From Octopus vulgaris (lineage: Eukaryota): a stretch of 64,000 bases of DNA. A program made the position numbers and the translations under genes. The stretch spans positions 191,642,001-191,706,000 of the forward strand of contig OX597815.1 of NCBI GenBank assembly GCA_951406725.2. The letters run 5' to 3'. The notes under the pieces are model-generated. The model did not search any database. It saw only the letters and a list, made by a program, of their open reading frames with translations, and had not been told where the DNA came from. This document shows positions 8,041 to 63,802 of the stretch, piece after piece; the stretch's first letter is position 1, and each line of letters begins with the position of its first letter.

Positions 8041-8575
8041 TATTTGTACAGCTCAATTTAGGAACTGCTCATTGTAAACTCCTGTAATTTTTATGTTACA
8101 GACAAGGTTCGGCTTGTTATCAACAAGAGTTTGCAGACGTTCTTCAAAAAATACCAACCCGTTACAAAATTATTTGCAGTCTGTTTATGTGGAGTTGGTT
8201 GAATTCCTGTATTCTCATCTGTATTCACAATTCGCTTTTGTTGTATCAACATCAGTTCCTCGTTTGATAAATTCGACCGCACCATCCTCTATGACTTCTT
8301 CAAATCTTATATCATTTGCAAGTGTCACAATATCTTTTCGAATCTGATGTAGACTTTCTGCTCGTGGAAAGCTTGTAAAGATACGGATACAGTCTGATCA
8401 TATATTTTTTCTAGCAGCATTCAGAGTGGAAGGTTTCACATCATCCCATGACTCAGCAATGTTATCCACAGCATCCATAATGTTGAACTTCTTCCAGAAG
8501 TCTTTACTGTAGGTTTACTCCGACTATCAATTGTTTTCATAAGTTGTTTGAGGGGTCTTCTAGGATAATATACCT

Positions 8576-8792
8576 ATTTTTTTACTACCCACAAGGGGCT
8601 AAACACAGAGAGGACAAACGGATTAAGTCGATTATATCGACCCCAGAACGTAACTGGTACTTAATTTATCGACCCCGAAAGGATGAAAGGCAAAGTCGAC
8701 CTCGGCGGAATTTGAACTCAGAACGTAACGGCAGACGAAATACGGCTACGCATTTCGCCCGGCGTGCTAACCTTTCTGCCAGTTCGCCGCCT
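8576..8792 (-). mobile_element. SINE family B, full length, with TSD
   Basis: Head ggcggcgaactggcagaaaggttagc; flanking direct repeat ttctaggataatatacct. Confidence 0.9.
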
Positions 8793-8864
8793 TCTAGGAT
8801 AATATACCTTGAAGTTAGCTATGTGTGGGAGCAAAGGATTTGCATTTTGGGGAATATAAATAAA

Positions 8865-32919: not shown

Positions 32920-33800
32920 ATATTGGCTTCAAATTTTTGATACAAGGCCAGCAACTACGGGGAAAGAGGTAAATCGATTATATCGATCTCAGTGGTCAAC
33001 TCTGGCACTTATTTTATCTATTTCTTCACTACCCACAAGGGGCTAAACACAGAGAGGACAAACAAGGACAGACAAACGGATTAAGTCGATTACATCGACC
33101 CCAGTGCGTAACTGGTACTTATTTTATCGGTCACGAATGGATGAAAGGCAAAGTCGACTTCGGCGGAATTTGAACTCAGAACGTAACGGCAGACGAAATA
33201 CCTATTTTTTTACTACCCACAAGGGGCTAAACACAGAGAGGACAAACAAGGACAGACAAACGGATTAAGTCGATTACATCGACCCCAGTGCGTAACTGGT
33301 ACTTAATTTATCGGCCACGAATGGATGAAAGGCAAAGTCGACCTCGGCAGAATTTGAACTCAGAACGTAACGGGAGACGAAATACCCATTTCTTTACAAC
33401 CCTCAAGGAGCTAAACACAGGGAGGACAAACAAGGACAGACAAACGGATTAAGTCGATTATATCGACCCTAGTGCGTAACTGGTACTTAATTTATCGGCC
33501 ACGAAAGGATGAAAGGCAAAGTCGACTTCGGCGGAATTTGAACTCAGAACGTAACGGCAGACGAAATACCTATTTCTTTACTACCCACAAGGGGCTAAAC
33601 ACAGAGAGGACAAACAAGGACAGACAAACGGATTGAGTCGATTACATCGACTCCAGTGCGTAACTGGTACTTAATTTATCGGCCACGAATGGATGAAAGG
33701 TTTAGTCACCTCCGGCAATTTGAACGCAGAATGCAAAGACGGACGAAATACAGCTAAACAGTTTGTCCAGCATGCTAACGATTCTTCTAGCTTCCCGCCT
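32920..33800 (-). mobile_element. Tandem SINE B array (~184-bp units, four copies plus a terminal partial)
   Basis: Unit boundaries near 33017, 33201, 33385 and 33569; a single head near 33800. Confidence 0.92.
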
Positions 33801-34301
33801 TTGAATGAATTAAAATATTGGCCGACATTTAATCAGATGCTATATCAATTTAGCTGTATCACAAGTTAACCAATAAGCAATTGTAATAATCATTTCTTTT
33901 GAGTAAATACAAAGGTAATTTTTTCTAGGGTTGATGGTGGAGGAGAGACGACGACGGACGCTTTTATAGTCGAAGTCTTCGGTGAAATAGATGCAATCAT
34001 TGTTAGATTATTCTTTAAAGAAATGGGTAAGCAGCGGGGGAGTGAGTCTGAAGGAAGAAAATATTATTAAATATATGGGGAAAATGTAATTACATTTATT
34101 GGGGAAAATATAATTATATATTAAAGTAAATATAAGTAAATATTAAAAAAAATATAAACTAAATCTTTAATGATTTCTGGGCCAGATCAATTGATAATTG
34201 GTAAGAAGCTAGGTAATATAAACTCTGAGTAACCCAAAATATATTAACAAGTTTATTATGTACATACATACATACATACATACTTAGATGCTCAAACATG
34301 T

Positions 34302-42194: not shown

Positions 42195-43143
42195 GCCACA
42201 AGGGCAGCTTGGGATGAGTCGATTACATAGATCCCAGTGTTCGATTAGTACTTATTTTATCGACCCCGAAAAGATGAAAGGCAAAGTCGACCGCGGCGGA
42301 ATTTGAACTCAGAACGTAGCTACGGGCAAAATCCCGCCAAGTATTTCGTCCAGCGTGCGAACGATTCTTATTACACATAGAGGGGACAAACAAGGACAGA
42401 CAAACGGATTAAGTCGAATATATCGACTCCAGTGCGTAACTGGTGCTTATTTAATCCACCCTGAAAGTATGAATGGCAAAGTCGACCTCGGCGGAATTTG
42501 AACTCAGAACGTAATGGCAGACGAAATATCTATTTCTTTGCTGCCCACAAGGAGCTACACACAGAGGGGACAAACAAGGACAGACAAACGGATTAAGTCG
42601 ATTATATCGACCCCAGTGCGTAACTGGTACTTATTTAATCGACCCCGAAAGGATGAAAGGCAAAGTCGACCTCGGTGGAATTTGAACTCAGAACGTTCAG
42701 ACAGACAAAATACCTATTTCTATTTCTTTACTACCCACAAGGGGCTAAACACAGAGAGGACAAACAAGGACAGACAAACGGATTAAGTCGATTATATCGA
42801 CGCCAGTGCGTAACTGGTAATCAATTTATCGACCCCGAAAGGATGAAAGGCAAAGTCGACCTCGGTGGAATTTGAACTCAGAACGTTCAGACAGACAAAA
42901 TATCTATTTCTATTTCTTTACTACCCACAAGGGGCTAAACACAGAGAGGACAAACAAGGACAGACAAACGGATTAAGTCGATTATATCGACGCCAGTGCG
43001 TAACTGGTAATCAATTTATCGACCCCGAAAGGATGAAAGGCAAAGTCGACCTCGGCGGAATTTGAACTCAGAACGTAACGGCAGACGAAATACGGCTACG
43101 CATTTCGCCCAGCGTGCTAACGGTTCTGCCAGCTCGCCGCCTT
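42195..43143 (-). mobile_element. Tandem SINE B array (~5 units)
   Basis: Repeated units; the two 190-bp units at 42675 and 42865 are nearly identical; head at 43143. Confidence 0.92.
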
Positions 43144-43157
43144 CGAAAGTTTGGGTT

Positions 43158-43268
43158 GCTTACAGGTTTCCCAAGCGGTCAGCCATCAAAGTACTCACTA
43201 GGTTCGACGTTGCTTAACTTCGGTAATCGGACGAGAACCGGTGCTTTCAACGTGATTTGGCCGTAAGT
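43158..43268 (-). pseudogene. 5S rRNA pseudogene
   Basis: Reverse complement cttacggccaaatcacgttgaaagcaccggttctcgtccgattaccgaagttaagcaacgtcga...gtact..gatgg..gaccgc.tgggaa..ctgtaagc matches metazoan 5S, with substitutions and a short 3' deletion. Confidence 0.9.
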
Positions 43269-45202: not shown

Positions 45203-45436
45203 GAAGGCGGCGAGCTGGCAGAATCGTTAGCACGCCGGGCGAAATGCGTAGCCGTATTTCGTCTGCCGTTACGTTCTGAGTTCAAATTCCACCGAGGTCG
45301 ACTTTGCCTTTCATCCTTTTGGGGTCGATAAATTAAGTACCAGTTACGCACTGGGGTCGATGTAATCGACTTGATCTGTTTGTCTGTCCTTGTTTGTCCC
45401 TTCTGTGTTTAGCCCCTTGTGGGTAGTAATGAAATA
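45203..45436 (+). mobile_element. SINE family B, full-length monomer
   Basis: A-box-like tggcagaatcgttag, B box gagttcaaattcc; probable TSD tattatRtaggtag. Confidence 0.92.
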
Positions 45437-47308: not shown

Positions 47309-47311
<3 letters not shown>

Positions 47312-47585
47312 CTTTGCCTTTCATCCTCTCGGGGTCGATAAATTAAGTACCAGTTACGCATTCGGGTCGATATAATTGACTTAATCCGTTTGTCTGTCCT
47401 TGTTTGTCCTCTCTGTGTTTAGCCCCCTTGTGTGTAGTAAAGAAATAGGTATTTCGTCTGCCGCTACGTTCTGAGATCAAATTCCGCCCGGGGCGATGAA
47501 ATAAAGTACCAGTTATGCACTGGGATCGATATAATTGACTAGCCCTCTCCATTCCTCCAAAATTAAAGGCCTTGTATTTTGAGTA
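47309..47585 (+). mobile_element. SINE B partial dimer
   Basis: Junction gaaataggtatttc at 47442. Confidence 0.85.
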
Positions 47586-47613
47586 GAAATAATCATTACT
47601 GATTATGTGTGAA

Positions 47614-50497: not shown

Positions 50498-51575
50498 TAA
50501 GGTAACCAGCTGGCAGAATCGTTAGCATGCCGAGCGAAATGCGTAGCCGTATTTCGTCTGCCGTTACGTTCTGAGTTCGAATTCTGCCGAGGTCGACTTT
50601 GCCTTTCCTCCTTTCGGGGTCGATTAAATAAGTACCAATTACGCACTGGGGTCGATGTAATCAACTTAATCCCTTTGTCTGTCCTTGTTTGTCTCCTCTG
50701 TGTTTAGCCCCTTGTGGGTAGTAAAGAAATATGTATTTCGTCTGTCGCTACGTTCTGAGTTCAAATTCCGCCGAGGTCAACTTTGCCTTTCATCCTTTCG
50801 GGGTCAATTAAATAAGTACCAGTTACGCACTGGGGTCGATATAATCGACTTAATCCGTTTGTCTGTCCTTGTTTGTCCCCTCTGTGTTTAGCCACTTGTG
50901 GGTAGTAAAGAAATAGGTACTTCGCCTGCCGCTACGTTTTGAGTTCGAATTTTTGTCCCCTCTGTGTGTAGCCCCTTGTGGGCAGTAAAGAAATAAGAAT
51001 CGTTAGCACGCCGGGCAAACTGCTTAACAGTATTTCGTCCGTTTTTACATTCTGTGTTCAAGTTCTGCCGAGACCGACTCTGCCTTTTATCCTTTCGAGA
51101 TCGATAAAATAAGTACCAGTTGAACACTGGGGCCGATGTAATCGACTTACCCACTTGCCCGAAATTACTGGCCTTGTGCCAAAATTTGAAACATATAACC
51201 AAAATGGAAGATTCCGCCGAGGTTGATTTTATCTTTCATCCTTTCGGGATCGATAAATTAAGTACCAGTCGAGCACTGGGTCAATGTAATCGACTTAGCC
51301 CCTCCCCTGAAATTACTGGCCGAGTGCCAAAATTCGAAACCAGTATTAAAATGGAAGATAAAGCGGCAAGCTGGCAGAATCTTTACCGCGCTGGGAAAAA
51401 AAGCTTAGCAGTATTTCTTCCGACTTTACGTTCTGAGTTTACATTTCTCCGAGCTCGCTCGACGTTGTGTTTCATTCATTCGAGGGTAGATGAAATAAGT
51501 ACCAGTTAAGTACTGGGGCCTGAGGAAATCGATTTACCTTCCTCCAAGTTTGTTGGCCTTGGGCCAAAATTTTAA
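50498..51575 (+). mobile_element. Mixed tandem SINE B array
   Basis: Head at ~50500; junctions at 50726 and 50910; then three units with the alternative ggccttgtgccaaaattt tail. Confidence 0.88.
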
Positions 51576-59705: not shown

Positions 59706-59929
59706 TCATTCATATTTGACCGACCCATCCTCCGAGGTTGTTGACCATGTCGCTTTGTCGCAATATTTCAAATCAATATTATATTCTTTGGAGAAACTTG
59801 AAGAAGAATGAGAGCTCTATAAGACAGATGTTCGAGAAAAAAAAACAAACAAATAAGAAATAATCTTTACAAGAAGGGGTCCCAAAAGTGAAGAGAGGAG
59901 AAAGAATGGAAAGACGAGACATTCTTTTA

Positions 59930-60170
59930 GTCACTTCAGTAAGGGAAGGAAAAGAAGAAATTTTGGCAGACCAACAATCTTGAAAGTATTTATAGAATAG
60001 ATAAAGAAGTTTAGTTGGCTAGAATAGGCATTATAAATCTTAGAAAATCGCTTTTTACTTCGGTCAATGACAGCAAAATTTTCGGCAGAGAAACTCAACA
60101 TAGACGTAAGAGTATAGTTCCATGCAAAAGTGAATGAGATTTGTAAAAATGAAGAATACATATGGTGTAG
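59930..60170 (-). pseudogene. Very degenerate LINE C-terminal fragment, similar to 29105-29512
   Basis: Shares acttc.ttatct.ttctataaatac (TSLS.FYKY) and a YKS..CME-like segment. Confidence 0.4.
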
Positions 60171-60384
60171 AGATAATGATGAAATCCATGTTGAAAAAAA
60201 CCCAAAAAAAACAAAGTATTAATATATTATAGGCGCAAGGGAGGCCGTGAGTTAAGAGTTTGCTTCCCAACCGCATGTTTCCGGATTCAGTTCTACTGCG
60301 TAGCACCTTGGGCAAATCTTCTGCTAAAGCCTCGGGCCGACCAAAGTCTTGTGAGTGGATTTGGTTGACGGAAACTGAAAGAAA

Positions 60385-61152
60385 TGGGGCAGCAAGCTGG
60401 CAGAATCGTTAGCACGCCGGGCGAAATGCTTAGCGGTATTTCGTCTGCTGTTACGTTCTGAGTTCAAATTCCGCCAAGGTCGACTTTACCTTTCATCCTT
60501 TCGGGGTCGATTAAATAAGTACCAGTTACGCACTGGGGTCGATATAATCGACTTAATCCGTTTGTCTGTCCTTGTTTGTCCTCTGTGTTTAGCCCCTTGT
60601 GGGTAGTAAAGAAATAGGTATTTCGTCTGCCGTTACGTTCTGAGTTCAAAATCCGTCAAGGTCGACTTTGCCTTTCATCCTTTCGGGGTCGATTAAATAA
60701 GCACCAGTTACGCACTAGGGTCGATATAATCGACTTAATCCCTTTGTCTGTCCTTGTTTGTCCTCTCTGTGTTTAGCCCCTTGTGGGTAGTAAAGAAATA
60801 TGTATTTCGTCTGTCATTACGTTCTGAGTTCAAATTCCACCGAGGTTGACTTTGCCTTTCATCCTTTCGGGGTCGATTAAATAAGTACCAGCTACGCACT
60901 GGGATTGATATAATCGACTTAATCCCTTTGTCTGTCCTTGTTTGTCCTCTCTGTGTTTAGCCCCTTATGGGTAGTAAAGAAATAGGTATTTCGTCTGCCG
61001 TTACGTTCTGAGTTCAAATTCCGCCGAGGTCGACTTTGCCTTTCATCCTTTCGGCGTCGATTAAATAAGTACCGGTTACGCACTGGGGTTGATATAATCG
61101 ACTTAATCCGTTTGTCTCTTTGTGTAGCCCCTTGTGGGCAGTAAAGAAATAG
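60385..61152 (+). mobile_element. Tandem SINE B array (4 units), preceded by the 5' half of a SINE A (60231-60383)
   Basis: One head, then junctions gaaataggtatttc / gaaatatgtatttc at 60611, 60795 and 60979. Confidence 0.93.
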
Positions 61153-61637
61153 GAAACTGAAAGAAATATGTGTGGGTGTGCGCGCGCGTCTTTCCGCCCG
61201 TGTTTGTCCCCTACCATGATTGACAACCGATTCGGGCAGTCTAATAACTGAAGCAATTAAAAGAAAAGATAAGAGAACTAGATCTAATATAACCATTTCA
61301 TTAAAAAATCTTTAGAAAAAAGTTAAACCTAGAAAACACAAGATAGAAAACTTACAAAACACACTACCGAGCATAGAACATGCAATATTATCACATTCTT
61401 GAGTTCAAATTCCGCCGAGGTCGACTTCGCAGTTCATTTCGGTGTTGATAAATTAAGTATCAGTTACGTACTGGAGTCGATCTAATCGACTGGCCCTATT
61501 TCCCCAAAACTTTCGGGCCTTGTACCTAGATCAGAAAAGATTATCACAATTCTGATTGCCCTCTATCAAATTTCACTAACAGCTATTGGTCAGTCTGAGA
61601 CTATACATTAATATATACTTACCGGAAGTGCTGTTTA

Positions 61638-62622
61638 TATTGGTTTCAAATTTTGGCATGTGGCCAGAAATTTCGGGTGAGGCGCTAAGTCGATTACATC
61701 GATCCCAGTGTCCAGCTGGTTCTTATTTCATTGATCCCAAAAGGATTAAAGACAAAGTCGACCTCAGCAGAATTTGAACTCAGAACATAAAGACAGACGA
61801 AATGCCGCTAAGCATTTTGCCCGGCATGCTAACGATTCTGCTAGCTCCCTGCCTTATAGTGCCACTTATATTATTTTCTACTCTGGACACAAGGCCCTAA
61901 ATTTTGGAGGAAGGGGCCAGTCGATTAGATCGATCCTAGTACGCAACTGGTACTTAATTTATCGATCCCGAAGGATGAAAGGCAAAGTCGATCTCAGCGG
62001 AATTTGAACTCAGAACGTAGCGGCAAACGAAATACCCATTTCTTTACTACCCACAAGGGGCTAAACACAGAGAGGACAAACAAGGACAGACAAACGGATT
62101 AAGTCGATTATATCGACCCCAGTTCGTAACTGGTACTTAATTTATCGACCCCGAAAGGATGAAAGGCAAAGTCGACCTAGGTGGAATTTGAACTCAGAAC
62201 GTAACGGCAGACGTAATACCTATTTCTTTACTACCCACAAGGGGCTAAACACAGAGAGGACAAACAAGGACAGACAAACGGATTAAGTCGATTATATCGA
62301 CCCCAGTTCGTAACTGGTACTTAATTTATCGACCCCGAAAGGATGAAAGGCAAGTCGATCTCAGCGGAATTTGAACTCAGAACGTAGCGGCAAACGAAAT
62401 ACCCATTTCTTTACTACCCACAGGGGGCTAAACACAGAGGACAAACAAGGACAGACAAACGGATTAAGTCGATTGCATCGACCTCAGTGCGTAACTGGTA
62501 CTTAATTTATCGACCCCGAAAGGAGGAAGGCAAAGTCGACCTCGGCGGAATTTGAACTCAGAACGTAACGGCAGACGAAATACTGCTAAGCATTTCGTCT
62601 GGCCTGCTAACGTTTCTGCCAC
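61638..62622 (-). mobile_element. Tandem SINE B array (4 units) plus adjacent monomer
   Basis: Junctions near 62030, 62215 and 62397; heads near 62620 and 61850. Confidence 0.92.
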
Positions 62623-63802
62623 TTATATTGAGATCAGACCCAGCGATCTTCTTAACCATACAGTCATATCTTGTCATATCATCCTTTAAGGCGGTATGTC
62701 GCAATATGAGATCATTTAGTTGTTTCTTTCTAAAACGTCAAGGCTTCAGCGCTTTCTTTGGCTTCATTGTTAAATGTTGCTGCTGGAACCATTGAAAAGT
62801 TACCGCGTTTATCCTTAGGCCACCCATCTGCTTTCTATCAAGAAAACTTTGATCATATAAATCAATCATTGTTGTAGCTTATGGGATGAGACTTGTCACT
62901 AAAGTTTGTCAAATAATTTTAAGGTATTCACAATTTTAAAATGAATTATTACATCATATGAGTTGGCTATTAAGATATCTAAGTTCAACGTTCCTCTGCC
63001 CTTCGGCTATATATATCTCAAAAGAAGCCAATATCATAATTATAATGAGACTGACATCGCCTTTGTAGTATGAAACGAGTTAACCGGGTATCGATAAAAA
63101 GTACTGGACTTGTGTGTCAGCGTTTTCGCCCTAGATCAGTGACCCTCAACCATTTTTTTTTATCTATGGTCCTCTTTGATTCCTATTTAATTCTGGTGGA
63201 CATCCATAGCCATTCGATGTTTAAAAACTAGTGTTATAGATACCCCTTTCAAAAATTTTTATTTTGTTTTTCATACATTAAACCTTAAAGTCGCCTTAAA
63301 GGATGATATGACAAGATATGACTTGTATGGTTAAGAAGATCGCTTCGCAACTGCGTAGACTGGGTCTGATCTCAATATAAGTGGCAGAAACGTTAGCAGG
63401 CCAGACGAAATGCTTAGCAGTATTTCGTCTGCCGTTACGTTCTGAGTTCAAATTCCGCCGAGGTCGACTTTGCCTTTCATCCTTTCAAATTCATGCCGAT
63501 CGTCCGTTTACACTGACCCTTAATTTTTTAAGGGTATAAAAAACAAATACTTGATACAAATTGTGATTTGTGTATGATCTGTATCAAAGAATGAAACGTG
63601 TTCTTAACGCGTATGCAGTCTGTATCAAACGGATTTCAATGAAATTTTTTCCAGTTATTTAGGTCAAAATAATCGTACCTGTGAATTTTCAGGTAATTTC
63701 AATCACTAGAAAAAATTCGGCACGAATGGGTTAACCTGTATAAGTTGAACTATGTAAAACGTGACAGAAAGAAGCCTAGCTGTTTCTTGCAATAAATATA
63801 TC

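Follow-up and report, generated by a model that had tools for sequence, protein, structure and literature searches.

What makes the tandem SINE units at this locus restart, one after another, at the same internal position of the element? The window, i.e., the whole 64,000-nt stretch of Octopus vulgaris DNA analyzed here, poses this question most clearly in an array near its right end, all parts of which lie on the forward strand. An unrelated short repeat with very high contig depth (60232..60385), presumably resembling another octopus tRNA-SINE, took up the array in its 3' end. A duplication search shows a perfect 16-bp target-site duplication starting with GG (60370..60385 and 61152..61167), which encloses a single tRNA-like head and four units. 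The head (60386..60434, SINE positions 1-50) includes the A-box (60398-60412), and also the 5' arm of a head hairpin with its loop. Unit 1 (60435..60616, positions 51-234) supplies the B-box (at 60460), the body and a LINE-like tail, here termed tail A. Unit 2 (60617..60800) lacks a head and restarts at position 51; unit 3 (60801..60984) is also headless and carries variants common to units 2 and 4 in an overlapping pattern. Unit 4 (60985..61151), which is internally deleted and whose tail subtype has C at position 222, is likely to be what remains of a host copy into which the rest was inserted. With one A-box and four B-boxes, this array bears out the proposal of the initial annotation that each complete array has one A-box head.

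That annotation had listed six array loci in the window. Tandem Repeats Finder recovers five of them as arrays of 184-190-bp periods (33018-33751, 42248-43093, 50549-50951, 60435-61117 and 61919-62583), and the sixth, at 47.3 kb, consists of a single headless, 5'-truncated unit followed by one junction and an older-type body that has a deletion and bears tail B (47309..47600, forward strand). The array at 33019..33801 (reverse strand) has four units behind an old, diverged head, and past its last tail the sequence continues as an old tail-C copy, entered near position 125. At 42217..43144 (reverse strand) four tail-A units are followed by a restart at position 18 into an older copy, and at 50508..51149 (forward strand) a head, two full units and one deleted unit precede an old tail-C copy that is entered by a restart at position 18. 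The array at 61860..62629 (reverse strand) comprises a 5'-truncated head, three tail-A units and a last unit with the older tail B, flanked by a 13-bp duplication (61860-61872 and 62617-62629). Overall, tails of older subfamilies form the end of, or the continuation beyond, four of the six arrays (33.0, 42.2, 47.3/61.9 and 50.5 kb); these ends and the second fixed restart at position 18 were absent from the first reading. The window also holds free monomers at 8575..8794 (reverse strand), with a duplication that starts GGTAT like position 51, and at 45203..45436 (forward strand), with a 17-bp duplication.

Some local features accompany these arrays. Within 61919-62621 (reverse strand), the 5' variants of unit 2 recur in unit 4, as does the change in the preceding junction, and unit 3 differs, giving a two-unit periodicity. 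The 5' flank and head of this array (62570-62720, reverse strand) recur as an inverted duplicate at 63200-63486 (forward strand) with a 17-nt difference, and the 17-nt insertion is present at 62641 in a contig of run X15. Directly before the 42-kb array, 43145-43250 (reverse strand) is a candidate 5S-derived repeat or pseudogene, which we take to resemble 5S rRNA. At the other end of the window, tandem repeats at 826-1569 and 2197-2930 form mirrored pairs, suggesting a long inverted repeat with arms of more than 700 bp.

By the features tested, the repeated element is a tRNA-derived SINE: motifs that we take to be A- and B-boxes were found by pattern, and ARAGORN predicted no tRNA. Its tRNA-like head and central conserved body are presumably those of the OR1/OR2 family of octopus or of a sister family. 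It is abundant in contigs, mapped to 59800-63000, of runs labelled as four organisms. Free monomers have a common head and body and one of three tails, the young A, the older B and the oldest C, and 13 of 25 free A monomers have target duplications (median 17 bp). In arrays the inner units always end in tail A, and the last unit in A, B or C. Tail A matches ~57 nt at the 3' end of a LINE at L047 (score 57.5, whereas 300 shuffles did not exceed 35.0); no match to this 3' end was seen for tail B or tail C. This LINE has two ORFs, with open frames of 597 and 1,145 aa, the latter containing endonuclease, reverse transcriptase and zinc finger domains (Pfam PF03372, PF00078 and PF13966) and having human L1 ORF2 as its closest solved structure (E 5e-53). 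Full-length copies set in TATC repeats were seen at L047:542-6135 (G000:C2, ~35 kb before the window) and at L060. Genome-wide there are 6,893 exact 3' ends of the LINE, and most of the 20 cases inspected adjoin TATC/TA repeats. Taken as sequence, it looks like a TATC-targeting family of the L1/Tx1 group, and the 3' similarity points to LINEs of this type as the likely mobilizers of the SINE.

The position-51 junction is extremely common. Its 22-mer has 30,336 exact occurrences in the 2.8-Gb genome and a 24-mer of the tail has 102,312, counts that differ in stringency and hence give no ratio; in the window the restart 12-mer occurs 27 times with at most one mismatch against 0.27 expected. The initial annotation was right in taking the junction as programmed, with independent recurrence at separate loci. 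Among 664 kb of DNA taken at random with respect to the junction (the window, 200 kb adjoining it and 400 kb from eight other places), 24 of the 55 loci having this tail carry the position-51 junction. This exceeds the threshold for target-specific insertion, more than 20% of copies at a fixed site in one kind of sequence, that is set out in the accessible text of PMC4494074, though part of these loci may represent re-copied arrays. Of 88 tails scored in the same DNA, 39 restart at position 51, one at 18 and 48 elsewhere or at unassigned places, a few of the last being junction variants. Position 18 is a second fixed restart with 1,308 exact junctions genome-wide, whereas the genome has a single such junction at a control site near position 100.

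The junction had been called invariant, which holds for its position but not for its letters, since single changes occur at junctions in the window; those at 42.7 and 42.9 kb have an additional 6-nt repeat of the tail. The restart was rightly placed at the loop of the head hairpin (z -2.81, with 2 of 200 shuffles equally stable), its G being the first base past that loop. The hairpin ascribed to the junction itself forms its 5 bp in 41 nt but is weak (z -1.81, 9 of 200 shuffles), and it is missing from the centroid in an 86-nt context (z +0.69).

Direct evidence on how the junctions arise comes from loci with two heads. At L020, an old head runs to position 66, a full young copy follows, and an old C-type body resumes from position 51; two duplications are nested there, an inner one of 16 bp and an outer one of 15 bp. 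A tight exact pattern detects 60 such two-head joins genome-wide, on many contigs, and the first 30 loci were taken as a sample; 29 of these are distinct, and a scorable tail was found in 26 but not in the other three. The body picks up at position 51 in 22 of the 26 and fails to do so in four, and the duplication measures 12-19 bp with a median of 16 (21 loci). The duplications tend to carry host-type letters on both sides that are missing from the new copy, and at L163 and L168 a host deletion is common to both sides. Outside the pattern, host heads lie 14-16% from the consensus and the new copies 3.6-5.1%. Young copies have inserted at position 51 of older family copies with duplication of ~16 bp (positions 51-66), and the host-variant duplications in a nested two-head structure argue for insertion into older genomic copies as against an RNA template jump. 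The head segment (positions 1-66) is itself repeated in tandem, in units of 65-66 bp, at G000:C14:84691111-84691413, C1:194001248-194001350, C11:19231495-19231597 and C20:48572630-48572732; these arrays are likely expansions of two-head insertion products.

What, then, selects the site? Tail subtype predicts it: T-type tails lie at position 51 in 187 cases and at 18 in two, and CA-type tails at 51 in three and at 18 in 12. None of the 6,893 LINE 3' ends lies directly before the position-51 site, and tail B does so in 15 cases genome-wide. As LINE ends never occur there, the LINE endonuclease alone appears insufficient, and the SINE RNA probably guides the choice. For T-type terminal copies in unique DNA, the targets often start with GGT inside the duplication, which is not so for the CA-type. 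The flanks of terminal copies match the predicted GGUAUUUC extension of the RNA over 0-8 nt only, a point against such guidance. Family sites make up 67 of 933 GGTAT words (7%) as against 59 of 91 GGTATTTC words (65%), so that a demand for 8 nt of pairing would concentrate insertions in family copies. The likely guide to the site is an RNA 3' end that pairs with the nicked DNA strand. A stronger formulation would have this as an RNA-programmed homing SINE, in which read-through into the target overrides the microsatellite preference of the LINE partner, the tail subtypes steer to 51 or 18, and old copies, tens of thousands in number, have their promoter head renewed or replaced by seamless joining; to that formulation we give even odds.

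Briefly, we advance the following mechanism, to which we assign a probability of roughly 70%: self-targeted insertion of the SINE at position 51 with homology-driven loss of one head, and then local DNA duplication. Tail A, shared with the 3' end of the two-ORF LINE, would recruit the machinery of that LINE. Source copies that already sit at position 51 and have no four-T run would yield transcripts that continue into GGUAUUUC. The target strand, once nicked, might then pair with this RNA extension; with family copies as the commonest perfect matches, the process could be self-renewing. Target-primed reverse transcription would insert the copy in place, with the ~16-bp duplication (51-66) seen at the two-head loci. 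The 16-nt overhang or the host head may next anneal to the matching cDNA to leave a seamless single-head dimer, and 184-bp slippage or unequal exchange, suggested by the overlapping shared variants, would extend it to 3-6 units. Some arrays were probably re-copied whole at a later stage.

The proposed loss of a head can be followed in arrays where the host is old. At 29 of the 285 loci genome-wide where an A tail is joined to a C-type start (L240 and L145 being one and the same locus), two heads are present at seven and no head at two. Two heads are thus found at seven of 27 C-type-start loci as compared to one of 81 general arrays (p 2e-4); their greater frequency with diverged hosts is expected if 5' joining depends on homology. 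Seven single-head C-ended arrays (tail C and a full head, chosen by pattern and sorted by eye) have 47 changes in 304 head positions versus 16 in 383 of the body (p 4e-7), carry the C-type letter at position 39 in six of the seven heads, and switch from old to young near position 51-62. Some observations speak against this reading: the four C-ended arrays of the first sample have young-type heads, with the C-type letter at 39 in none of them; the B-ended arrays have young heads with no clear gradient, and outer duplications that look no older than those of monomers; and two-head products are rare (1/81), so that the bulk of the process is reconstructed from a minority. The heads of B-ended arrays show 96 changes in 1344 positions, like free A copies, versus 198 in 1581 in free B copies, and a test of them for an old-to-young gradient was not significant. 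Plain seamless joining predicts old heads, and the B-ended arrays therefore need head conversion or another route; conversion by cDNA, re-copying of the whole array or a template switch could each have produced them. Other arrangements of tail B occur as well. At L098, L103 and L109 it is followed by the head of another copy, entered at position 18 or 1, with short words matching at the join, and it forms tandem arrays with ~101- and ~167-bp periods at L135 (G000:C1:15779642-15780173) and at G000:C5:48225500-48226036.

The young heads also fit an account by which most arrays were copied whole, with a few nested loci serving as sources transcribed from the head through the last tail. A four-T run, the Pol III stop, is absent from every consensus. 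The initial annotation had called for a check of whether target duplications surround whole arrays, and they do so in 15 of the 26 arrays that end in A and in 17 of the 30 that end in B (~1% by chance), as opposed to none of four C-ended ones. The outer duplications of B-ended arrays look as young as those of monomers, and their mismatches (9/240, against 21/300 for free B copies; p 0.13) make them no older than monomers and do not separate the routes. Further, at L264 a multi-unit piece lies inside one duplication at position 51, and a T at position 22 of the head is found in 20 of 55 scored arrays but in one of 25 monomers. Against this, the last B units differ by 16.8% on average and free B copies by 17.5%, so that thousands of sources would be needed; the C-ended arrays keep old heads, and tail B has no match to the LINE end. 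We accordingly regard whole-array copying as an unlikely origin for the bulk of the arrays.

Another route would begin with reverse transcription of any family RNA, stall at the head hairpin (position 51), switch by microhomology to a tail-A RNA at its 3' end and finish with the head of that RNA. This would account for the combination of young head, old last unit and young outer duplication in B-ended arrays, for a restart at the hairpin loop and for dimers that join unrelated molecules; the fixed template jump raised by the initial annotation may hold for part of the arrays. It leaves unexplained the nested two-head loci, with their host-private 16-bp duplications of positions 51-66 and an older outer duplication, and the old C heads. 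Nor does a stall account for position 18, a site in the region of the other arm whose use depends on tail subtype. As a general explanation we consider it quite unlikely.

Array classes were drawn from 315 chains, of which 141 were clean and 174 partial, headless or complex ones were omitted, along with overlapping loci and the 30 two-head loci. Of 50 classed arrays, 30 are dimers, and nine, seven, three and one have three, four, five and six units. The two units of A-A dimers differ by 10.1%, as compared to 10.5% for units from different loci, and a rare variant is shared between the units in three of 18 dimers. In 31 arrays of at least three A units, rare variants occur in subsets of units 51 times and in all units three times; adjacent units differ by 6.4% and first and last ones by 9.3%. 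The nearest neighbor of a unit lies in its own array for only 35 of 122 units. On such sequence comparisons, the arrays likely began as dimers of unrelated copies and grew by local duplication.

Since the dimer units are unrelated and rare variants are shared by subsets, a rolling circle is not supported. The initial annotation had suggested loop cleavage and ligation to a 184-nt circular RNA followed by rolling-circle reverse transcription. The fixed unit length, the weak junction hairpin and a unit size that falls in the range of animal retrozyme circles given in the available portion of PMC7229834 would suit it. However, a rare variant common to every unit is seen in only two of the 31 longer arrays, the last units come from other, older subfamilies, and the circle would lack the head that the arrays possess. 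An Rfam scan (E<=10) for ribozymes gave none, its single match being a chance one to a CRISPR repeat, and a search of both strands for the hammerhead core did not find it. We deem this origin very improbable. The single multimeric master copy of the initial annotation, a lone ancestral tandem duplication inherited and later varied by recombination, would suit a fixed junction and a tail subtype that varies with array position, but last units that are B-type from the first diagnostic bases (64-66) and heterogeneous (16.8% apart on average over 30 arrays, 8.2% for the closest pair) leave it scarcely credible, and as the sole explanation it is refuted by the nested two-head loci on many contigs.

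If the self-insertion reading is true, these arrays would represent natural, genome-scale RNA-guided target choice by L1-group machinery, with events at a single base that run to tens of thousands and with built-in controls, as the LINE itself and the sister tails do not use the site. They would suggest where SINE-derived tandem repeats come from, in a form open to testing, how a SINE may secure a safe haven and by what means old copies gain a new head and tail. They would also provide an extensive natural record of 5'-junction resolution, the least understood step of target-primed insertion, over increasing host divergence. Repeat annotation is likely to split these arrays into many false families. 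In the accessible parts of PMC4824008 and PMC4758252, the octopus tRNA-SINEs OR1 and OR2 are named with no mention of arrays or self-insertion; a recent octopus repeat annotation reports hundreds of unclassified SINE families, and the part of its text available to us (PMC13282606) makes no mention of these arrays. A Meta-domain label was unsupported by the corresponding part of PMC4824008 and is not used here. Among the open-access literature searched, there is no report of these arrays or of SINE self-insertion at a fixed site.

Known systems nevertheless provide parallels, which we draw as far as the accessible text of each source extends. Animal non-LTR retrozymes form dispersed tandem arrays of 170-400-nt units with hammerhead ribozymes and circular RNA (PMC7229834); the dispersed arrays and unit size range are alike, but the units here are those of a SINE with Pol III boxes and a LINE-like tail, in which no ribozyme was found, and these arrays do not look like a retrozyme. 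The SINE-derived satellites of squamates (PMC10702118) occur at many loci and have units shorter than the SINE and a longer terminal unit, as do our arrays; however, they run to hundreds of units with a subtelomeric lean and are attributed to unequal recombination, whereas the arrays here have 2-6 units, are dispersed and bear traces of targeted insertion as a first step. The arrays described here also do not match the length expected of such satellites, which are homogenized and have at least four middle units. In SINEU-3/Tx1-Mar of crocodilians (PMC4494074), a SINE with a Tx1 partner inserts at fixed positions in an abundant repeat, with tandem copies arising by sequential insertion, and members of the Tx1 clade also target microsatellites. 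The crocodilian SINE and its LINE insert into a DNA transposon as their common target, and heads are kept around the duplication, unlike the SINE described here, which targets its own family, with the LINE at that site in 0 of 6,893 cases, and loses one head. Finally, R2 with upstream 28S on its RNA gives uniform seamless junctions, attributed to a cDNA-target heteroduplex, and a minority of tandem target duplications (PMC3774820). The two 5' outcomes and the co-transcription of target sequence with the element recall our system; R2 differs in being autonomous, with an rDNA-recognizing protein and a ribozyme, while the SINE is non-autonomous, targets its own dispersed copies and has no ribozyme that we could find. 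Thus, a self-targeting SINE, by a mechanism that we infer in part, likely extends the known range of target-primed insertion.
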